Origin: Bacteroidia bacterium
Lineage (GTDB): Bacteria > Bacteroidota > Bacteroidia > UKL13-3
Reading direction: 5' to 3'
NCBI GenBank assembly: GCA_025454975.1
Contig: JALONK010000008.1
Coordinates: 7,569-71,568, forward strand
DNA: 64,000 bases
How positions within the stretch are numbered: position 1 is the first letter of the stretch; each line of letters opens with the position of its first letter. The notes below the pieces were generated by a model that saw only the letters and a list, made by a program, of their open reading frames with translations, was not told where the DNA came from and did no database searches. The position numbers and the translations under genes are program-made. Of the stretch, positions 3,131 to 63,538 are shown one piece after another.

Positions 3131-4603
3131 TTGAGCGAATCATACAAGATAAAAATGTTTTACGCCATTATGGTGGTGTTTGTACTGTTAACAATATATG
3201 GTATATATGATGATGCCTATTTGTTGCATGTAATTCCTGTGGCTTTAACGTTTTTGTATCTGTTGTTATTTAAGCTTGATTATGTTTTATTGGCATTAAA
3301 CGCACTTATTCCGCTCTCTGTTCAGGTTGATGATGTTGGTTATGGCTTTGGTTTAAGTTTGCCTGATGAGCCTGTAATGATGAGCATCATGTTATTGTCG
3401 GTTCTTAAATTTGTAATTGATGGATCCTACGATATTAAAGCTTTAAGGCATCCGATATCGGTTGTAGTTTTTATGACAATGGGGTGGTATTTCGTAACTG
3501 CTGCAACCAGCGAAATGCCAATGGTTTCAATCAAGTATGCCATATCTCAAATGTGGTTTATGGTAGTATTTTATTTTCTAGCCATCATGTTATTTAAGCA
3601 AATGCGATATATGCTTATTTATCATTGGTTGTACATCATACCTTTGTTGTTGGTTGTATTATATACGTTTTACGAGCATGGTAAGTTTGGCTTTTCGCAA
3701 GAGGCATCGTTTTATATTAGTCGACCATTTTATATAGCACATGGAATTTACTCAGCTTGTATTGCATTTTTAGTTCCGTTTATTGTAGCATGGATGTATT
3801 ATTACAAAAAGGTAAATTTACATGCAGGCCACTTAGTTATATTATCAGGCATATTATTAATTTTTTTATTGGCTCTGTTTTTATCCTATACCCGGGCGGC
3901 ATGGTTAAGTGTATTAATAGCAGGGTTAATGCTAATACCAATTGCGCTTAAAATAAAGTTCAGAAATCAATTGATTATTTTATTTACAGGTGTTGCACTT
4001 TTTTTGTTTTTTAAGGATGATATTTTGTATGCCCTTTCAAAAAACAAACAAGATTCAGCGGAAGGTTTTTCAAAACATCTACAGTCAGCCTCAAATATTC
4101 GAACAGATGCCTCAAACGTGGAAAGAATAAATCGCTGGATGACGGCCCTTGAGATGTTTAAACGTAAACCCGTATTTGGTTTTGGCCCGGGTACATATCC
4201 CTTTAAGTATGCACCTTACCAATTGGCACGTTATAAAACCGTAATTACAACTAATTTTGGTAATCAGGGGAATGCACATAGTGAATTTTTAAACCCATTA
4301 GCTGAACAAGGATTATTAGGCGCTATCAATATAATTTTGATTGTTTTTTATGGATTGAATACGGCGTTTAATATGTTGTTTACAGAAAAGGATAAACGAT
4401 TAAAAATGCTATTATTTGCCAACGCATTAGGGTTAGTTACCTATTTTACACATGGGCTATTAAACAATTATATGGATAGCAGTAAGGTTGCGCCTTTGGT
4501 TTGGGGAGGCTTAGCTATGATAGTAGCAATAGATATATTTCACAAAACTTCAGATAAGAAAGCGGAGATTGATTTAAGCGTGAGCAGCAATCAACAAGTC
4601 TAA
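3131..4603 (+). CDS. O-antigen polymerase/ligase family membrane protein (Wzy/WaaL-like)
   Basis: 490 aa polytopic membrane protein with a large loop near residue 330 (NRWMTALEMFKRKPVFGFGPGTY, O-antigen-ligase-like); adjacent to the Wzx and Wzz homologues. Confidence 0.55.
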   Translation: MSESYKIKMFYAIMVVFVLLTIYGIYDDAYLLHVIPVALTFLYLLLFKLDYVLLALNALIPLSVQVDDVGYGFGLSLPDEPVMMSIMLLSVLKFVIDGSYDIKALRHPISVVVFMTMGWYFVTAATSEMPMVSIKYAISQMWFMVVFYFLAIMLFKQMRYMLIYHWLYIIPLLLVVLYTFYEHGKFGFSQEASFYISRPFYIAHGIYSACIAFLVPFIVAWMYYYKKVNLHAGHLVILSGILLIFLLALFLSYTRAAWLSVLIAGLMLIPIALKIKFRNQLIILFTGVALFLFFKDDILYALSKNKQDSAEGFSKHLQSASNIRTDASNVERINRWMTALEMFKRKPVFGFGPGTYPFKYAPYQLARYKTVITTNFGNQGNAHSEFLNPLAEQGLLGAINIILIVFYGLNTAFNMLFTEKDKRLKMLLFANALGLVTYFTHGLLNNYMDSSKVAPLVWGGLAMIVAIDIFHKTSDKKAEIDLSVSSNQQV

Positions 4604-53648: not shown

Positions 53649-54317
53649 TTACACAATAATGTATCCTTTTTTAATAGCATATACAACTAATCCGGCTGTG
53701 TTTCTCGACCCGGTTTTTTGTAGTAACCTGTTCCTGTAATTTTCAATCGTTTTTACACCAAGATGCATTAACTCAGCAATCTCGGCGTTGGTATGCTCAT
53801 TACAAATATGTTTTAATAAAGATAACTCTTGTTCATTTAAGTCTTCCGGGTTTTTAGCCTTATTGGCTTTCAAAACATCCTTATCTAATATGCTTTTTAA
53901 AAGTTTAATTGATATGTTCTGACTAAAGTAATATTCGTTATGATACACTTCTCGAATGGCTTCGGCAATTTCTTCAGGTTGTGAATCTTTTAACAGATAA
54001 CCACCCGCCCCGGCTTTAAACATGCTAACTACATGCGAATGACTTTCATAAACAGACAAACCTATGATTTTTACGTTTCGATATTTTTCTTTCACTACAG
54101 CGGTTGTTTCTGCACCATCCATGGCTTTCATCTTCATATCCATCAATATCACATCAGGGAGTTGTTTCGCTGTTCTTAACCATTCAATTGCCGCTTCACC
54201 GCTTGGTAAATCAACAAGTACTTCTAAGTCATCGAATAAATGAATAGAGGCTAGTAAGCCTGTTCTAAAAATTTGATGGTCATCAACCAATACTACTTTA
54301 ATTTTAGAGTTGTTCAT
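53649..54317 (-). CDS. Two-component response regulator, NarL/LuxR family
   Basis: REC domain (VVLVDDHQIFRTGL, ...DVILMDMKM...) plus C-terminal LuxR-type HTH. Confidence 0.85.
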   Translation of the reverse strand: MNNSKIKVVLVDDHQIFRTGLLASIHLFDDLEVLVDLPSGEAAIEWLRTAKQLPDVILMDMKMKAMDGAETTAVVKEKYRNVKIIGLSVYESHSHVVSMFKAGAGGYLLKDSQPEEIAEAIREVYHNEYYFSQNISIKLLKSILDKDVLKANKAKNPEDLNEQELSLLKHICNEHTNAEIAELMHLGVKTIENYRNRLLQKTGSRNTAGLVVYAIKKGYIIV

Positions 54318-55114
54318 ATGCTGGATTTTAATGGGATTATTACACTTACCTGATAGCCTGAATCCGGTGATGAGGTGAATTGGATTTTTCCATTTACTGC
54401 ACTTATTCTACTTTGCATACTTAACAGTCCAATTCCTTTTCCAATCTTTTCATTTACTTCAAAACCTATTCCATCATCGGAATATTGATAATTGATGCTA
54501 TCATTTTCTACTTCAACTTTTATTTCAATCAACTTAGCATGCGCATATTTGATGGTATTATTAATTAGCTCCTGTGATACCCGATAGAGCGCACGTTCAA
54601 TATCTGCAGGAAATCTTATGTCTTCGCTTGGCTTGTACAGATTAGCTTTTACACTTCCCGATTCATTCACTTTGGTTATTAACTCTGTTAATGCTTCTAT
54701 TAATCCAAAATCATTCAACACCACAGGCATTAATTTTCTGGAAATACTCCTGGTTTCACTTATACTTTGTTTGTTTAAAGTTTTAAGTTGGTCAATAGTA
54801 TTGGGTAAATTATCTAGGCTATATTCAGGATTTTTTATGGCTGTTTCTAACCCATGTAATGTCATCAATTGTGTGGTTAAAATTTGACTTAAGCTATCAT
54901 GTAATTCAGCAGCAAATTCTTGCTTTTCGTTTTCTTGGGTAGTAATAATTGCTTCCAATAACTTTTTTTGATGTTGCAATTCAAGGCGACTAAGTTCTGC
55001 TTTATAGGATGATCTTTTTCTTTCATAAATAATCATGAATAAAAAGATAAATACAAACACCACCACCATGATGAATGTACCTGCAAATACAATTATCTTA
55101 AGCTTGTCTTCCAT
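54314..55114 (-). CDS. Sensor histidine kinase (HisKA_3 + HATPase_c) with one N-terminal TM
   Basis: ELHDSLSQILTT H-box; N/G boxes (NNTIKYAHA..., DDGIGF); 4-nt overlap with the downstream RR gene. Confidence 0.8.
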   Translation of the reverse strand: MEDKLKIIVFAGTFIMVVVFVFIFLFMIIYERKRSSYKAELSRLELQHQKKLLEAIITTQENEKQEFAAELHDSLSQILTTQLMTLHGLETAIKNPEYSLDNLPNTIDQLKTLNKQSISETRSISRKLMPVVLNDFGLIEALTELITKVNESGSVKANLYKPSEDIRFPADIERALYRVSQELINNTIKYAHAKLIEIKVEVENDSINYQYSDDGIGFEVNEKIGKGIGLLSMQSRISAVNGKIQFTSSPDSGYQVSVIIPLKSSI

Positions 55115-57034: not shown

Positions 57035-57175
57035 ATGTTTTTTTCATTCTCACTTCAAGTTATTATAGCTGCATTATCAATTATTTTAACATGCCTACTT
57101 TTTTGGATAGGCTATTTAATCGGTTACAATCATGCCAGAAAAATGTTGATGGGTAAGTACAACAAACTATTTTAA
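57035..57175 (+). CDS. Candidate small single-TM protein (46 aa)
   Basis: MFFSFSLQVIIAALSIILTCLLFWIGYLIGYNHARKMLMGKYNKLF; ATG start; hydrophobic core plus basic tail. Confidence 0.3.
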   Translation: MFFSFSLQVIIAALSIILTCLLFWIGYLIGYNHARKMLMGKYNKLF

Positions 57176-57186
57176 AACTGTACACC

Positions 57187-57339
57187 TTGTATCAAACATT
57201 ATTTTTTTGGCTAGTATTGTTATTTATTCTATACCTTGTATTTAGTATAGGTTTCTTTTATGGAATGAGTAAAGGGAAAAAAGCAATTTTCAAAAAAATT
57301 AAACCACATCAGATTGATGAAATCAAGAAAGACAAATAA
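57187..57339 (+). CDS. Candidate small single-TM protein (50 aa, TTG start)
   Basis: LYQTLFFWLVLLFILYLVFSIGFFYGMSKGKKAIFKKIKPHQIDEIKKDK; begins 12 nt after the first small ORF. Confidence 0.25.
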   Translation: MYQTLFFWLVLLFILYLVFSIGFFYGMSKGKKAIFKKIKPHQIDEIKKDK

Positions 57340-57466: not shown

Positions 57467-58501
57467 ATGAAAAAAATAATTACTATAGATGGAGGTGGAA
57501 TTCGTGGAATTGTTCCCGGGGTAGTATTAAGAACTCTAGAACAAAAAATTCAACACAAGCTGCAAAATCCAAAGGCACGCCTAGCCGAATATGTTGATTT
57601 TATGGCGGGTACAAGTACAGGCGGAATTTTAGTAAGTTTATTATTATGCAATGATGGCTCAGGTAAACCGAAGTATAGCGCCGCAGATGCGGTTGATTTA
57701 TACATAAAAAACGGCAGTAAAATTTTTGATGTATCACTGAAGAAAAAAATCAATTCATTGGCAGGTTTGTCTGATGAAAGATTTGATGCAAAGGTATTGG
57801 AAGAATTACTTCACCAGTATTTTGGTGACCTAAAGTTAAGTCAATTGTTGAAACCGTGTTTAATTACGTCATACGATATTAAAAGCAGGAAAGCCCACTT
57901 TTTTACTCAACACGATGCTAAGAAAAAAGGTGATGCACACGACTTTTTAATACGTGATGTTTGTAGGGCAACTTCTGCTGCACCTACATATTTTGAAACA
58001 GCCTTAGTAAAATCCAGGCTGGGTGTTTCATACGCCTTAATTGATGGAGGTATCTTTGTGAATAATCCATCAATGTGCGCTTATGCCGAAGTAAGAAATG
58101 CCGAGCATGGTGAAGAACATGATAAGATTACAGCAAAACGAATGTGGTTGTTATCCTTAGGTACAGGGGACGAAAATATCTCGTACGAATATGATAAGGC
58201 CAAGAACTGGGGTATGGCAAGTTGGTTAAGCCCATTGATAGATATGATGATGTCGGGCTCATCTGAAGTTACTCATTATTATTTATTGAAAATGTTTGAT
58301 GCTGCCGATGTGAGTAACCAATATAAACGCATTGCACCAACTAAAATGTATAATGCAGATACCGATATGGCAAATGCTTCGGATGAAAATATTCAAGCAT
58401 TGGTTGAATTAGGTTTGTTAACTGTTCAACAACATGATGAAGATTTAGAGAAAATAGCTGATTTTTTAATTAGTGATGGAAACGATGCGCTCGCATATTA
58501 A
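57467..58501 (+). CDS. Patatin-like phospholipase
   Basis: Oxyanion hole DGGGIRG, nucleophile elbow GTSTGG, catalytic-Asp motif IDGG. Confidence 0.85.
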   Translation: MKKIITIDGGGIRGIVPGVVLRTLEQKIQHKLQNPKARLAEYVDFMAGTSTGGILVSLLLCNDGSGKPKYSAADAVDLYIKNGSKIFDVSLKKKINSLAGLSDERFDAKVLEELLHQYFGDLKLSQLLKPCLITSYDIKSRKAHFFTQHDAKKKGDAHDFLIRDVCRATSAAPTYFETALVKSRLGVSYALIDGGIFVNNPSMCAYAEVRNAEHGEEHDKITAKRMWLLSLGTGDENISYEYDKAKNWGMASWLSPLIDMMMSGSSEVTHYYLLKMFDAADVSNQYKRIAPTKMYNADTDMANASDENIQALVELGLLTVQQHDEDLEKIADFLISDGNDALAY

Positions 58502-59456
58502 GTTATTTGAAAGGTTTGGATTTAATAATTATGCATTTGTCATCCTTCTGCTCCTGTTTGTCGTGTCGTGTGGCCAAAATAAAAACAAAACAACTTCAAC
58601 TCAACAAGAAACTAACAGAGCTTCTGATGATACTGTCAAAAGCACTAATAAGCAGGAAAATCGTGAAATACCTTCTGATTCCTCTTTAGTATCACATATA
58701 AATGCAAATGATACCTCACCTGTTGTTGGGATAACCTCTCCTGATGTTAACCCAACAGAGGAGAATTATAATGACCATGTGTTGGCTCCAAGTGAATCAA
58801 ATGCCGGCCCTGATGCAGGTGCTGAATCTATACCTCAAGAAGGTATCACTACTCATGGTAAACATCAAGACAATCAATATGCCGCTGCTTCAGCTAATTT
58901 ATGCTTTTCTTATTTTAATAAAATTGCCATTAATGAATCAAAAGATATCAATGTAAATCTAAGTTCAATCGTAGATACTAAAACGTTATTGGCAGAAATA
59001 CAAAAGAAAGTAATTGAGCAAGAAGGAAATTCACTTGATAAAATTCGTAATGATAGTCAATCATGTACTAAAGTGAATGTGTTTAAGTTTGTTGAAATAG
59101 AAATTATTGATGTTGACCAAGCTTTTGTTATTATTCCTTTTAATGATAAGCGTCAATCTTTATTATTAAAGCAAACTTTAAACTGGCGTTGGGCTGTTAA
59201 ACCGAAACCCGATGCTGATGTAAAAAATGCACGACTAGTAATTGCCGTAAGAGGTGAAACAGCAGATGGAAGTAGAGCTGATATCACTACTAAAGATATT
59301 CGTCTTACCATAAATATTGATGCACAATCTTTGTGGCGAAAAACTTGGATTTTTTTATATAATAATCCGGAATCACTTCTCACCTTGTTAATATTACCAC
59401 TAATACAATGGATTTACAGTTGGTTTCAAAAGAAAAAACAAACCACCGACCAGTAG
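58485..59456 (+). CDS. Lipoprotein with long polar linker, globular domain and C-terminal TM helix; overlaps the patatin gene 3' end
   Basis: Signal peptide/lipobox ...LLLLFVVSCGQ; about 120 aa Ser/Thr/Asn/Asp-rich linker; C-terminal WIFLYNNPESLLTLLILPLIQWIYSWFQKKK. Confidence 0.55.
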   Translation: MRSHIKLFERFGFNNYAFVILLLLFVVSCGQNKNKTTSTQQETNRASDDTVKSTNKQENREIPSDSSLVSHINANDTSPVVGITSPDVNPTEENYNDHVLAPSESNAGPDAGAESIPQEGITTHGKHQDNQYAAASANLCFSYFNKIAINESKDINVNLSSIVDTKTLLAEIQKKVIEQEGNSLDKIRNDSQSCTKVNVFKFVEIEIIDVDQAFVIIPFNDKRQSLLLKQTLNWRWAVKPKPDADVKNARLVIAVRGETADGSRADITTKDIRLTINIDAQSLWRKTWIFLYNNPESLLTLLILPLIQWIYSWFQKKKQTTDQ

Positions 59457-59701
59457 AGAAAACTTATTTTTATGAGCTTTCTTAATCATGATTGGTAGAT
59501 TATTTTAATCTACTATTGTTAAATGTGCTTACTAATAATCAGTTACTAATATTTATGTTTTGTTTTTATTATTAGATGTGATAAAGCTAAACATATGCGT
59601 GTTGTTTACGGTGGTACGAATCTTAAAGAATCTAAAAGCCTGGTTAATGATATAAAATTGCTTTTAGTTGAATATTTTTAAATTAATTTTGCCGACGAAT
59701 A

Positions 59702-60067
59702 ATGAAGCGGATATTTACCATAGCTATCCTTTTGCTGTTTGTGGTTCAAAGCACCAGTAGTGTATGGATATTGTTATCGTTTTATGCTAAGCAGGATTTT
59801 ATTAGCAGGGTTTTGTGTATTAATCGCTTCGAAGAAATGCCTGAGTGTAAAGGAAAATGTTACCTCTCCAAACAATTAAATCAATCCGATGAAAATCAGT
59901 CGAAACTGCCTACAATAAAGCAATCATCAGAAGAGTTGTTTTTTCATTTACCAATGCTAGCTACCTACGCTTTGCAGGTATATGACCAAGTTAAACAACC
60001 TTTAAACTATCACGAAAATTTACATCCTTCATCTTTTTTTGATGATGTATTTCACCCTCCATGCTAA
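59702..60067 (+). CDS. Small secreted Cys-containing protein, function unknown
   Basis: 121 aa; signal peptide; CINRFEEMPECKGKCYL ... HPPC. Confidence 0.45.
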   Translation: MKRIFTIAILLLFVVQSTSSVWILLSFYAKQDFISRVLCINRFEEMPECKGKCYLSKQLNQSDENQSKLPTIKQSSEELFFHLPMLATYALQVYDQVKQPLNYHENLHPSSFFDDVFHPPC

Positions 60068-60264
60068 ATTTTATTTACGTTGTATTTTAAGATATACAAT
60101 CTTTTTATTATTGATTTCATTTACACATATTGGCATTTAAGTTAGTTGGCTTTAAGCTGTATCAACAATTTTAGCTTGTAAAGTTTCAACATCAATGTGT
60201 TGCTTGTAATCGTTTACTTAAGTAAATTCGGTAGCATAGCATACCGGATAATCATTAATATTTT

Positions 60265-61191
60265 ATGAATTATAAAACCGCTAGAACACGACTAGTATCC
60301 TGCGGTAGTATATTGCTATTAGTTTTTATTTTTCTTTCACCACAAATGTCTTTTGCATGCGATGTTTGCGGCTGTTCAGTAAATGCTAATTATTTTGGTA
60401 TACTGCCTCAATTCAACAAAAACTTTGTTGGTGTACGTTTTAACCAAAGTTTTTTTGATTTACAACATACTCCTTCTTTATTTCCAAAACCGGAACAGGC
60501 ATATTCTGAAAATCTGAATAGGTATGAAATATGGGGGAGATATTTTATTAGCAATAGGCTAATAACTTTTGTAAATATACCATGGCAATATAATATGCGA
60601 AAGGATCAAGATTTAGAACAGTCTTATACAGGTGTTTCGGATGCAAGTATTTCCTTAGTTTATATTCTGTTTAATACCGGCGACAGTGTAAAGCAGAAAT
60701 GGCGCAATACACTGATGTTAGGCTCGGGTATAAAATTACCAACCGGAAAGTTTAGGTCCGATAAACCGGCTTCCATTCAAACGGGAACCGGTACATTTGA
60801 TTATCACTTGAACCTAATTTACACCATCAGGTATAAAAGTTATGGTATGAATGCAGATGCAACCTATCGCATAAATGGTACTAACGATACCTATAAATAC
60901 GGCAACAGGTTGATTTCAAGCTTTCGTTTTTTTTATTGGAAGCAACAAAAAACGCATTCTTTATTGCCTAACGTGGGAGTATTATTCGAAACAGCACAAC
61001 GCGATCAAAGTAATAATATTCCTCAACTGTATACTGGTGGTAATGGTTTTTATTTTTCCGGTGGAGCTGATATTTATATCAAGCGTGTTGTATTTGGTGT
61101 AAATGTAAGTGCACCCTTTGCTGAACATTTAAATAGAGGATATGCGCGAACACAGCATAGATTCTCAACTCAACTTTTATATTTATTTTAA
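60265..61191 (+). CDS. Outer-membrane beta-barrel protein with N-terminal CxxCxC motif
   Basis: 308 aa; signal peptide ...SPQMSFA then CDVCGCS; alternating beta-strands; C-terminal LLYLF. Confidence 0.5.
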   Translation: MNYKTARTRLVSCGSILLLVFIFLSPQMSFACDVCGCSVNANYFGILPQFNKNFVGVRFNQSFFDLQHTPSLFPKPEQAYSENLNRYEIWGRYFISNRLITFVNIPWQYNMRKDQDLEQSYTGVSDASISLVYILFNTGDSVKQKWRNTLMLGSGIKLPTGKFRSDKPASIQTGTGTFDYHLNLIYTIRYKSYGMNADATYRINGTNDTYKYGNRLISSFRFFYWKQQKTHSLLPNVGVLFETAQRDQSNNIPQLYTGGNGFYFSGGADIYIKRVVFGVNVSAPFAEHLNRGYARTQHRFSTQLLYLF

Positions 61192-61214
61192 ACACATTAT
61201 TTAATAACAATTTT

Positions 61215-61928
61215 ATGAATTTTAAACATCATTCTATTTTATACTTTATTATTAGTTTATCAATTTTTTTATTGGGTAGCTGTAAGGATGATCATGACCA
61301 TGAACATGCAGCACCTGAAGTTACATTTTTATCACCAACCTTAGGTGCTCAATTAAATGAAAGTGATACCCTGTGGTTACGTATAAATCTCAATTCATCG
61401 GATGATATACATGATTATGTAGTTGAAGTTACCAAAGTGTCTGATGGTACATCGGTATATAAATACGAAGGTCACTCACACGCGAAGTCGGTTGCAATAA
61501 ATCAATATTTTTTTTCAAGTGTTGATGCAAATACCGACATGAAACTAACGGTAACAACTCTTGATCATAATGGTAAGGCCAATGCTAAAAGTATAATATT
61601 CACCGTGCTTAATAACCAAGAAGCATTAAAGCCTGTTATTACCCTTACTTCCCCTTCGTCGAGCATGGCAACAAATGGCCAAACATTGAATATTAAAGGT
61701 ACTATCTCACATGATAAACAACTTCAATCGGCCCGCATTATATTAACTAAAAATAATGTAACTGTTTTAGATTATCTAAAAGATAATATTGGTGCTACTA
61801 CCTATAGCTTTGATACGAGCCATGTAATTAATACAACCACTCACACTGATTATACATTAATTATCACAGCTAAGGATATACTTAATGTTGAATCATCAAA
61901 AACAGTAGGCTTTCATGTTCATCCATAA
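61215..61928 (+). CDS. His-rich lipoprotein with two Ig-like repeats (putative metal-binding)
   Basis: Lipobox LLGSC followed immediately by KDDHDHEHAAPE; two ~100-aa repeats (VTFLSPTLGAQL... / ITLTSPSSSMATNGQTL...). Confidence 0.5.
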   Translation: MNFKHHSILYFIISLSIFLLGSCKDDHDHEHAAPEVTFLSPTLGAQLNESDTLWLRINLNSSDDIHDYVVEVTKVSDGTSVYKYEGHSHAKSVAINQYFFSSVDANTDMKLTVTTLDHNGKANAKSIIFTVLNNQEALKPVITLTSPSSSMATNGQTLNIKGTISHDKQLQSARIILTKNNVTVLDYLKDNIGATTYSFDTSHVINTTTHTDYTLIITAKDILNVESSKTVGFHVHP

Positions 61929-61948
61929 TTATTAACGATTTTACGCTA

Positions 61949-62329
61949 ATGAAATATATTATTTATTGCTTGATAATAATTGCTATTGTATCATGTTCAA
62001 ATCAACAACAGAATAACCATACATCAACAAATGAAGCAACTGTTGCAACAGGTTCTCAATCGGTAAAGTCAACAGTAGTGATACCTGATGATATAAATGA
62101 ATTATTAAATAAACATACTTGTTTAACTTGCCATGCAGCTGCTGAGAAGGTTGTAGGTCCGTCGTATATTGATGTGGCCAAACGCGGATATAATAATGAT
62201 GAAATAGTTAGTTTAATTTACAAGCCAAAACCTGAACATTGGCCTGATTATCCTCCAATGATTGGTTTACCTCAGGTGCCTAAAGAAGATGCTTTAAAAA
62301 TTGCTGCATGGATTAATACTCTTAAATAA
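61949..62329 (+). CDS. c-type cytochrome (class I, lipoprotein)
   Basis: Lipobox IVSCS; heme-binding CLTCH; GPSYIDVAKRG ... KIAAWINTL cytochrome c fold pattern. Confidence 0.7.
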   Translation: MKYIIYCLIIIAIVSCSNQQQNNHTSTNEATVATGSQSVKSTVVIPDDINELLNKHTCLTCHAAAEKVVGPSYIDVAKRGYNNDEIVSLIYKPKPEHWPDYPPMIGLPQVPKEDALKIAAWINTLK

Positions 62330-62335
62330 AAAAAC

Positions 62336-62731
62336 ATGAAAAAAATACTCTTTACAATTGTATTGCTTGCTACTGTTTGTACAGCATACGCACAAGGAAT
62401 TATGTCTAAATGGCCTCAGTTGAAGTCTTTTCATACGGTTATGTCTCAAACATTTCACCCTAGTGAAGAAGGTAATTTAACCCCAATCAAAGAAAGAAGT
62501 ACTGAGTTGGCTATGAAGGCAGATTCATTATCATCTTCTAATATTCCTGCTGAATACAATACTTCGAAGATTCAAAAGGCAGTATTGCAATTAAAAGTAG
62601 ATGCTAAAAAGTTAGATGAACTTATTAAAAGTAACAAAGCAACAGATGCACAAATTACTAAAGCATTGAGTGATTTACATGATGTGTTTCATCAAATTGT
62701 TGGGTTATGTAAAAATGAACAAGAACATTAG
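62336..62731 (+). CDS. Secreted helical protein, function unknown
   Basis: 131 aa; signal peptide ...AYAQ. Confidence 0.4.
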   Translation: MKKILFTIVLLATVCTAYAQGIMSKWPQLKSFHTVMSQTFHPSEEGNLTPIKERSTELAMKADSLSSSNIPAEYNTSKIQKAVLQLKVDAKKLDELIKSNKATDAQITKALSDLHDVFHQIVGLCKNEQEH

Positions 62732-62732
62732 T

Positions 62733-63116
62733 ATGAAGGCAAATTATTTGGTAGGTTTATTTGTGTTATTTATTATCACGGCTTGTAGTAGAACAGATGC
62801 AGAAGAAGCAAAAAAAGTGGAACGTGATGTTTTCGCAATTCATGATTCAGTGATGCCTAAAATGGGAGCTTTGCTGGCAAAGCGTAAACAAGTTGTTTCG
62901 TATATGGATTCTGTAAAGAACAAACAAATGTTTGATTCACTCCAACAAGTTGTTGCCTTATTTGATAAAGCAGATAAGGACATGATGCACTGGATGCATA
63001 CCTATAAATCGCCAAACTATAAAAGTGATACAGCATTAGTTTATTTGCAGCGCGAATTGATAGCCATAAAAAAAGTAGCAGACCAAATTTATTTTTTGAT
63101 TGGGAAGAAACCTTGA
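62733..63116 (+). CDS. Lipoprotein, function unknown
   Basis: Signal peptide/lipobox MKANYLVGLFVLFIITACS; start 62733 preferred over the overlapping 62670/62715. Confidence 0.45.
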   Translation: MKANYLVGLFVLFIITACSRTDAEEAKKVERDVFAIHDSVMPKMGALLAKRKQVVSYMDSVKNKQMFDSLQQVVALFDKADKDMMHWMHTYKSPNYKSDTALVYLQRELIAIKKVADQIYFLIGKKP

Positions 63117-63188
63117 TACTTCTATTCATTTAGTTTATTTATAAATATGGTTGATATTTAAATAACTCTTTTTAAAATTAACTCCTAT

Positions 63189-63226
63189 AAACCGTTAGTG
63201 TGTGCGCATGCTAACGGTTTTTTTAT
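63189..63226 (+). terminator. Rho-independent terminator closing the 59.7-63.1 kb gene cluster
   Basis: AACCGTTAG-tgtgtgcgcatg-CTAACGGTT followed by TTTTTTT. Confidence 0.8.
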
Positions 63227-63538
63227 TATAAATGTTTTAAATTATTTATCACATCAATAATTAGTATAGCATTATTAGTCGCTACAGGTCTTATTTATTT
63301 AACGAGGTTAATAGAATGAATAAATTATTAGAATGTATGAATCTACTCTTATTTATTATTCACTTTTTTAGTTGGTTTGAATGACCATAACCAAATAAAT
63401 AAATGAATCGTAGAAACCATTTTATAATTATTAAAGTTACACTTTTTTTCATAATTCAACATTTTAAAATGCTATTAGAAGTATAAAGGAGATTGCCGAA
63501 AATCCTTAAGAGTAAGCCATTAATTAAACAACACAATT

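Follow-up and report, generated by a model that had tools for sequence, protein, structure and literature searches.

What is the function of a block of six small exported proteins, none of which is a named transporter? This question is raised by a 64,000-nt stretch from the genome of a Bacteroidia bacterium (contig JALONK010000008.1, positions 7,569 to 71,568, forward strand, about 35% G+C), referred to here as the window. In it, a listing of open reading frames (ORFs) together with direct reading of the sequence places six consecutive genes, here named g1 to g6, on the plus strand between positions 59702 and 63116. An earlier note on this DNA had described them as a co-directional set of exported, Cys- and His-rich proteins closed by a strong terminator, without a recognizable named transporter among them, and had suggested that they serve either metal trafficking or a redox conduit between periplasm and outer membrane. 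The layout holds: all ORFs are present, the Cys, His and haem motifs quoted for g1 to g4 are found as they had been read, the terminator stem folds with a z-score of -4.6, and the remark on transporters was essentially right. As judged from comparison with its relatives, the block is most likely the local version of a widespread Bacteroidota envelope module that is experimentally uncharacterised. On balance, this module probably handles copper, acquiring the metal and delivering it in the periplasm. The identity of the metal, the direction of transport and the regulation are what we infer here. The first gene, g1, probably encodes a leader with a regulatory role instead of a protein for metal trafficking, which had been overlooked.

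Relatives of the block were sought by scanning one genome per species. The scan found 223 of them, and 80 loci were kept and inspected: ORFs were called, jackhmmer was run with the six window proteins, and the neighbouring genes were clustered. Two tallies are used below, one of 86 loci and one of 80 distinct loci. The kept loci all belong to Bacteroidota (Cytophagales, Chitinophagales/Saprospiraceae and Flavobacteriales), except for one contig that is probably mis-binned. The latter (L057, CALPQG020000185.1) is labelled as a metagenome-assembled genome of Bifidobacterium breve and holds a typical Bacteroidota locus with barrel, MbnH, g3, MbnP and SCO1 genes. Another contig, 98% identical to the window (L001), carries the same six genes. 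Among the cultivated carriers are Ohtaekwangia koreensis, Chryseolinea lacunae, Fulvivirga sediminis and Agriterribacter humi.

The core of the module consists of g1, the outer-membrane beta-barrel g2 and the lipoprotein g3. The g1 family is found on the strand of the barrel gene in 76 of the 86 loci, either adjacent to it or separated by one or two inserted genes, and lies upstream of the barrel in all but three of its loci. Members of the g3 family, usually single-domain proteins of about 135 aa, are present in 45 to 47 of the 86 loci, mostly 2 to 39 nt 3' of the barrel gene. Of the 80 distinct loci, 69 have a member of the g1 family and 41 one of the g3 family; the block is conserved as a unit, and the g1/g3 gene order is kept across three Bacteroidota orders. 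The remaining genes are less widespread: the g6 family occurs in 12 loci, including loci of the MbnPH type, and g4 and g5 are confined to the four to six closest loci (four for g4 and five for g5 in one tally). Among the closest relatives, L002 (6771-7994), L005 (6759-8000) and L009 have, between g1 and the barrel gene, a gene for a WD40 beta-propeller that carries a sorting domain for type IX secretion; this gene is absent from the window, and no remnant of it was found in the 197-nt spacer between g1 and g2 (60068-60264).

The link to copper comes from the genes that accompany these loci. At least one copper-linked family is present in 52 of the 80 distinct loci, namely MbnP (42 loci), MbnH (41), a YHS-domain lipoprotein (7), SCO1 (5) and NosD (3). 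MbnP (PF20243, E 2e-56, with its WxW motif present) and the di-haem peroxidase MbnH (CCP_MauG, 4e-47) are the commonest inserted or adjacent families. A Pfam census of 147 operon partners, from which the core families were excluded, ranks SCO1 and DJ-1/PfpI at the top, and in the closest lineages (L005/L006, L009 and L010) the g1 to g6 block runs on into SCO1 and a second cytochrome c. MbnP binds copper via a kynurenine made by MbnH, and the role of this pair outside methanotrophs is still open (PMC11951088). The related proteins CorA and MopE, which scavenge copper in methanotrophs, bind the metal in association with the cell surface (PMC3912023). About half of the homologous clusters include genuine MbnP/MbnH pairs, whereas the window block has neither gene; there, g3, an unrelated Ig-like protein, may take over the capture. 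Regarding the metal trafficking suggested earlier, these associations, the architecture of g1 and the Met/His motifs of g6 point to copper, and leave zinc as a weaker alternative.

Three Saprospiraceae loci (L035, L041 and L055) carry NosD, NosF and a ScdA/hemerythrin-like gene directly 5' of a barrel homologue, which puts the barrel beside nitrous-oxide reductase maturation genes; g1 is missing there.

Profile searches, proposed earlier as a check, assign g2 to PF13557, g3 to Big_7 and g4 to the class I cytochromes c, and leave g1, g5 and g6 without any Pfam or NCBIfam family. The match of g2 to PF13557 (Phenol_MetA_deg/COG4313; E 3.9e-8, 34.1 bits with a cutoff of 22) covers profile positions 39-164 of 242, and many of the g2 homologues carry a precomputed match to the same family. 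A total of 270 homologues was detected, all of them unnamed, and searches of PDB sequences with the barrel profile found no relative. The family is marked by the N terminus of its mature protein. Across 16 diverse homologues, with 36-62% identity, A-C-D-x-C-G/S-C is invariant at the signal-peptide cleavage site, and A31, C32, D33, C35 and C37 do not vary. The CxxCxC motif (CD[VI]CGC) is present in 114 of the 120 homologues listed, which had been found without using the motif, and provides the only cysteines of the mature protein in 96 of these 114. Within the proteins of this family, conservation is highest over the approximately 20 residues ahead of the first predicted strand. Because relatives conserve them, the Cys and His features of g2, g1 and g3 are beyond chance.

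The only solved COG4313 member, Pput2725, is a barrel of 12 strands in which the N-terminal segment of about 14 residues folds into the lumen from the periplasm and leaves it almost closed (PMC4493636). By its score above the Pfam gathering threshold, its similar size and the presence of an N-terminal segment before the first strand, g2 resembles the COG4313 channels Pput2725, TcpY and SphA, and by analogy its three thiols may sit in or at the channel. In contrast to these channels, the segment of g2 opens with an invariant CD[VI]CGC and is conserved more than the rest of the protein, and the neighbours of the g2 family are copper-linked instead of catabolic. The block could nevertheless be read as an ordinary COG4313 channel for hydrophobic compounds, placed beside unrelated exported proteins with no common metal function, since members of PF13557/COG4313 have been linked to the import of phenolics, sphingosine and further hydrophobic compounds (PMC4493636). 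This is very unlikely: no aromatic or lipid catabolic genes recur beside these barrels, and the neighbour census contains MbnP/MbnH, SCO1, DJ-1, WD40 proteins and cargo of the type IX secretion system, with no gene of aromatic catabolism among them. Such a channel would also leave aside the g1/g3 order conserved across three orders and the invariant N-terminal cysteine triplet.

Known copper-specific outer-membrane transporters are all TonB-dependent, and for OprC and CrtA/BfrG a CruR-type leader often stands first in the operon, which has links to Sco and PCuAC chaperones (PMC12914433). As proposed here, g2 would share with OprC and CrtA/BfrG the role of an outer-membrane copper entry protein. 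Unlike them, it is small and has neither a plug domain nor a TonB box, and transport through it would be unenergised.

The third gene of the core encodes a lipoprotein with the lipobox LLGSC23. It had been described as having DDHDHEH directly after the lipidated Cys; the motif is there, preceded by a Lys that had been omitted, so that the order is C23-KDDHDHEH. The C terminus carries FHVHP. The AlphaFold2 model of g3, with a predicted local distance difference test (pLDDT) score of 84, consists of two Ig-like beta-sandwiches (residues 35-132 and 141-236). Foldseek searches with this model returned only generic tandem Ig/FN3 matches, and the fold is uninformative on function. In sequence, g3 matches Big_7 (29.1 bits with a cutoff of 24.1, 1.6e-6) and, under the cutoff of 27, DUF4625 (23.2 bits); among 36 relatives, 26 match Big_7 and 18 match DUF4625 (E<=0.01). 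The alignment of the family shows that H66, D117 and H118 are nearly invariant and that H87 and H89 are common. Most relatives start with an acidic, often His-rich stretch after the lipid Cys, and many members end in FH(C/V)HP.

The position of g3 at the cell surface is suggested by its N terminus, as C23-K-D-D matches the lipoprotein export signal (LES) of Bacteroidota surface lipoproteins, K-(D/E)2 (PMC5080379). DUF4625 lipoproteins have been proposed to act as lids of non-SusC TonB-dependent transporters, as for BT1419 of Bacteroides (bioRxiv 10.1101/2023.03.17.533168). Like these lids, g3 is an Ig-like lipoprotein encoded beside an outer-membrane transporter, 23 nt after g2. It differs from them in its partner, which is a small PF13557-type barrel and not a TonB-dependent transporter, and in its sub-threshold score, its two domains, its conserved His/Asp cluster and its His-rich termini.

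The fourth gene is the one on which the idea of an electron conduit depended, as it places a gene for a c-type cytochrome next to that of an outer-membrane barrel. The g4 protein has a lipobox (IVSC16) and a single haem motif, CLTCH, at residues 58-62 (nt 62120-62134). A phmmer search against the PDB aligns its residues 54-126 with cytochrome c552 (2d0s, E 2.2e-9), including CxxCH and the Met ligand (PM). Its matches to Pfam and NCBIfam cytochromes are weak, with the NCBIfam c551 and c550 ortholog models far under their cutoffs. By sequence, g4 is a class I cytochrome of the c551/c552 type, not an ortholog of the NCBIfam c551/c550 proteins. Conduits of the Mtr type combine multihaem cytochromes with a large sheath, whereas this block offers one haem motif and a 308-aa barrel of the PF13557 type, with no multihaem partner. 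Moreover, the monohaem cytochrome is restricted to the four to six closest loci, and over 90% of related loci lack it. A periplasm-to-outer-membrane electron conduit is therefore extremely improbable, and this part of the earlier proposal is unsupported.

The last two genes encode small helical proteins that had both been described as secreted or lipid-anchored. This stands for g6, which is a lipoprotein; g5 has a signal of the signal-peptidase-I type and no lipobox, and is predicted to be a soluble periplasmic protein. Among the homologues of g5 in five loci, the motifs FHxVMSQTFHPSEEGN and LHDVFHQIVGLCK are conserved, and the g6 family conserves (A/M)IHDxVMPxM and ADxxMMxWMH in 12 loci. Clusters of Met and His of this kind are typical of Cu(I) sites. 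A paralogous relationship between g5 and g6 was also considered and rejected (BLASTP E 13).

The protein g1 is matched by no Pfam or NCBIfam model, and yet belongs to a very large family. When its profile was run against the whole library, 8,189 clusters at 50% identity were recovered (5,819 at E<=1e-10), made of unnamed proteins of about 125 aa; the median length of the family is 126 aa. The sequence of g1 contains CINRFEEMPECKGKC, which includes C39, C49 and C53, and ends in FHPPC. In an alignment of 85 g1 sequences, the columns of C49, P119 and P120 are the sole invariant ones. The two prolines stand one to nine residues from the stop, mostly one to four, in 194 of 195 unique family sequences, in which the motif is FHPP (102 sequences), FRPP (38) or FKPP (29), and CxGxC is present in 162 of the 195. 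The distance from the Cys to the prolines is 70 to 76 residues in about 95% of this set, with a median of 74 and a value of 70 for g1 itself, and the spacer between the two is unconserved in sequence. The same holds for 140 cluster representatives taken as an independent set: 137 have the C-terminal prolines, with a median spacing of 72, and 137 have CxGxC. The pattern [FL][HRK]PP near the C terminus was found in none of 1,327 other proteins encoded in the same loci. Near the N terminus, 118 of 120 homologues have a hydrophobic 15-mer. AlphaFold2 predicts for g1 a helix at residues 2-37 (pLDDT 81-90), and the low confidence of the remainder suggests that the protein beyond this helix is disordered.

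These features resemble those of the copper-sensing ribosome-arrest leaders CutF and CruR, both DUF2946 proteins. CutF from Rhodobacter capsulatus has a Sec signal, C41xxxC45 and P114-P116 (PMC9973294), with 73 residues between C41 and P114 (PMC9973294; bioRxiv 10.1101/2025.02.05.636593). In this system, periplasmic copper prolongs stalling, which opens a stem-loop that masks the next gene (PMC9973294). CruR from Bordetella pertussis is the product of the first gene of a copper-import operon, where the sensing of copper by the nascent chain relieves stalling and permits Rho-dependent termination (PMC9426467). CutF-like proteins have been defined by a length of less than 150 aa, an export segment, a Cys motif, a Pro-Pro among the last 15 residues and a same-strand gene located downstream, and a survey based on these rules returned 5,334 proteins, 19% of them from Bacteroidota (PMC9973294). 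All of these traits are found in g1, which has 121 aa, is the first gene of its operon and is followed on the same strand by g2 after 197 nt, within the limit of 1000 nt. Its N-terminal export segment, its Cys motif (CxGxC, against CxxxC in CutF), its Pro-Pro a few residues before the stop, the fixed spacing between them (70 residues in g1 and 73 in CutF, with a median of 72-74 for the g1 family), its predicted unstructured body and the longer structured intergenic region before a copper-related envelope gene complete the likeness. Differences are found in the motif, which is F(H/R/K)PP in g1 and not RAPP or PPP, in the phylum, which is Bacteroidota, and in the downstream gene, which encodes a small Cys-motif barrel (or MbnP) instead of a TonB-dependent transporter, an oxidase or an RND pump. 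A survey of upstream ORFs with RAPP or RGPP found them related to copper in many phyla, except Bacillota and Bacteroidota (PMC12992588), an absence that fits the F(H/R/K)PP motif of g1. It may be that the g1 family was already among the CutF-like proteins surveyed in PMC9973294. From this analogy, g1 has been proposed here as a CutF/CruR-like metal-sensing ribosome-arrest peptide, which would stall and respond to metal in a similar way.

The surroundings of g1 were also considered. The gap that follows g1 has a median of 88 nt, versus 12 nt elsewhere within the clusters (Mann-Whitney p 7e-22). The gaps after g1 form stabler folds than shuffled versions of them (mean z -2.0; -1.5 for the first 60 nt), and in many loci a clear hairpin stands directly past the g1 stop codon. 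Six loci centred on g1 show it at the head of a barrel/MbnP cluster (four cases), of a TonB-dependent receptor operon and of a pair formed by a small protein and MbnP; MbnP is present in five of the six. In the receptor case (L088 7001-9790, Agriterribacter humi, VOHQ01000001.1), the g1-family gene precedes a TonB-dependent receptor and a BNR-repeat protein, an arrangement that mirrors the CruR-TBDT (TonB-dependent transporter) operons of Proteobacteria. In the pair (L093), a g1 relative heads genes for a 128-aa protein and MbnP, and the barrel is absent.

A different role could be envisaged for g1 as a structural subunit anchored in the inner membrane, with the FHPP tip and the Cys motif docking onto the barrel or gating it. 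The hydrophobic N-terminal helix with its extended tail, the co-occurrence of g1 and the barrel in the 69 distinct loci counted above, and the three loci in which g1 comes after the barrel would all suit such a subunit. It is nonetheless unlikely, given that a spacer that is fixed in length and unconserved in sequence, between one invariant Cys and a Pro-Pro one to four codons before the stop, is the signature of an arrest peptide. The long structured gap after g1 is likewise unexpected for a subunit, and so are the relatives that head barrel-less operons, such as those of L088 and L093. As g1 heads operons of varied content, a portable regulatory leader fits better than a subunit of the barrel.

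With g1 as a leader, the copper module could work as follows. If g1 behaves as CutF and CruR do, its chain would be the first to be translated, and its export would take place during translation. When the ribosome reaches F-H-P-P, two codons before the stop, CxGxC would be about 70 residues behind, just at the periplasmic face. Binding of metal to CxGxC would then alter stalling at the prolines, and the structured leader would set the transcription or translation of g2 to g6. At the other side of the envelope, g3 would be flipped to the surface, as its C-K-D-D suggests, capturing metal with its His-rich tail and its His/Asp cluster and serving as a lid of the barrel. The latter would be a small COG4313-type channel, for which 12 strands are assumed from the prototype. 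Its CD[VI]CGC segment, located inside the channel or at its periplasmic mouth as the Pput2725 structure suggests, would provide a thiolate site that selects Cu(I) and hands it on. In the periplasm, the metal may be accepted by the Met/His proteins g5 and g6, a role suggested by their motifs, and g4 might supply electrons, for instance for the reduction of Cu(II) to Cu(I), which is speculative.

The same parts could also work in the opposite direction, with a stalled g1 switching on g2 to g6 to remove copper or another soft metal, g5 and g6 acting as CusF-like proteins and the barrel as an exit duct. In architecture, g1 is closest to CutF, which turns on a detoxifying oxidase as copper rises, many CutF-like genes head efflux operons (PMC9973294), and the periplasmic Met/His proteins resemble copper-resistance chaperones. 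Efflux or detoxification is still rather unlikely: the recurrent partners are proteins of acquisition and delivery (MbnP/MbnH, SCO1 and the NosDF neighbourhood), RND or P-type efflux components are missing from the operon-partner census, a His-rich lipoprotein at the surface suits capture better than export, and a gene of the g1 family also heads a TonB-dependent receptor, which is an importer.

Several observations weigh against a copper-acquiring module headed by a leader peptide. Searches with tblastn for MbnP and MbnH found no match in the 64-kb window, and SCO1 is also absent from it, so that copper is assigned to the window block by association only. The assignment depends on relatives whose barrels are 36-62% identical, and 28 of the 80 distinct loci have no copper-linked neighbour. 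The leader hairpins of the window itself are weak (z -0.7 and -1.58), g1 follows the barrel instead of preceding it in three loci, and none of 85 family members matches Pfam DUF2946 (PF11162) even at E<=5, so that g1 was rejected as a member of that Pfam family. The direction of transport, in or out, is a guess, and so is the role given to the cytochrome. Finally, L005/L006, whose barrel is 62% identical and which form the closest non-identical lineage to the window block, have the block after a gene for a Fur-family regulator (best match Zur), a g3 paralogue and a ZigA-like COG0523 GTPase (544 bits).

This last neighbourhood is the main argument for the chief rival to copper, zinc acquisition, in which g3 would capture Zn(II), the Cys triplet of the barrel would pass it inward, and the operon would form part of the low-zinc (Zur) response. 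The His-rich termini of g3 suit this idea, since Cys-triplet and His sites can bind zinc, and some of the CutF-like leaders may respond to a metal different from copper (PMC9973294). The Zur/ZigA neighbourhood, however, is seen in one of the 80 distinct loci, compared with 52 that have copper-linked genes, and the g1 unit of L005 has its own promoter-like box, apart from the ZigA unit. Zur, ZigA and a matching operator are absent from the window. Met-rich motifs such as those of g6 are, by established coordination chemistry, typical of Cu(I) and atypical of zinc sites. Zinc acquisition is consequently an improbable explanation for the block. In L005/L006, a perfect palindrome, TTGTTGCAAATGCAACAA, is located at about 4160-4180, between the Zur-like regulator and the g3 paralogue with the ZigA-like GTPase, and is likely an operator; a search of the window for this palindrome, allowing up to three mismatches, gave no match.

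The copper module as proposed is assembled from parts of known kinds, namely a CutF-like leader, a COG4313 barrel, a DUF4625-like lid and a c551-type cytochrome, in a combination that is new as far as searched. No description of the family of barrels with a Cys-triplet plug, or of its coupling to MbnP/MbnH in Bacteroidota, was found in the literature. A bolder reading is possible, which we advance tentatively and hold to be somewhat doubtful: that g2 represents a new class of TonB-independent, thiolate-gated copper channel in the outer membrane, a COG4313-type barrel plugged in its lumen by an invariant N-terminal CDxCGC and paired with a His-rich surface lid lipoprotein, and that g1 represents a Bacteroidota-wide class of metal-sensing arrest leaders with F(H/R/K)PP, of about 8,000 clusters, controlling such channels, MbnP/MbnH and some TonB-dependent receptors. 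Copper acquisition by bacteria is poorly understood. If the copper reading holds, a major environmental and host-associated phylum would use for it a device other than the TonB-dependent transporters, namely a small barrel plugged by cysteines and covered by a lid at the surface, which is often coupled to MbnP/MbnH. The arrest leaders that sense copper would, moreover, include a large Bacteroidota family that is unannotated and has a stalling motif of its own.

The coordinates of the block and of its sequence elements are collected in the table below.

Table. Features of the six-gene block, in positions of the 64,000-nt window.
Feature	Position	Strand	Description
Candidate Bacteroidota-type -7 promoter box, TAATTTTG	59684-59691	+	10 nt upstream of the g1 ATG
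g1	59702-60067	+	121 aa, exported protein, proposed leader
g1 CxGxC motif, C49-K-G-K-C53	59846-59860	+	
g1 P119-P120	60056-60061	+	C-terminal F-H-P-P-C-stop
g1-g2 leader region	60068-60264	+	197 nt; AU-rich hairpin and U-tract at 60079-60105; hairpin at 60229-60246
g2	60265-61191	+	308 aa, PF13557-type outer-membrane beta-barrel
g2 mature N terminus, C32-D-V-C35-G-C37-S	60358-60378	+	follows the signal peptide ending in MSFA
g3	61215-61928	+	237 aa, His-rich lipoprotein with two Ig domains
g4	61949-62329	+	126 aa, monohaem cytochrome c lipoprotein
g5	62336-62731	+	131 aa, predicted soluble periplasmic helical protein
g6	62733-63116 (likely start)	+	127 aa, helical lipoprotein
Intrinsic terminator	63189-63227	+	14-bp stem (63189-63220), then U7; ends the block

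The gaps between the genes shorten along the block, from the 197 nt after g1 to 23 nt (g2-g3), 20 nt (g3-g4), 6 nt (g4-g5) and 1 nt (g5-g6). The last value takes the ATG at 62733 (MKANY...ITAC) as the start of g6, which is likelier than the start of the listed ORF at 62670. The second hairpin of the leader region lies 18 nt upstream of the g2 start. At the end of the block, the terminator folds with -17.4 kcal/mol, a value equalled by none of 200 shuffled sequences.

At the other end, the TAnnTTTG box may serve as the g1 promoter. Boxes of this kind are equally placed upstream of the g1 homologues in L002, L005, L009, L012 and L017, and this conserved position is weak evidence for the assignment, as TAnnTTTG occurs in the window at chance frequency (99 observed versus 105 expected). 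Scans for sigma-70 promoters are uninformative for Bacteroidota. A search for a common operator by counting k-mers over 79 regions upstream of g1 genes returned A/T-rich words only, and no inverted repeats were found in positions 59400-60300 of the window.

Other genes of the window lie upstream of the block. A pair formed by a HisKA_3 histidine kinase and a GerE/LuxR-type response regulator is encoded on the minus strand at 53649-55114, 4.5 kb upstream; it is also kept in L001, and no link to the block has been established. Between this pair and the block, a patatin-like phospholipase (57467-58501, plus strand) is accompanied by small ORFs with transmembrane segments at 57035-57339 and overlapped by an ORF of 327 aa (58473-59456, plus strand) with a lipoprotein-like N terminus and a C-terminal transmembrane segment. 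No cyclase gene is visible nearby. The phospholipase is strongly similar to CBASS-type phospholipase effectors (PADLOC 6e-63), with a score of 170 bits for NCBIfam CBASS_lipase, under its cutoff of 200, and could be an orphan or variant defence effector.

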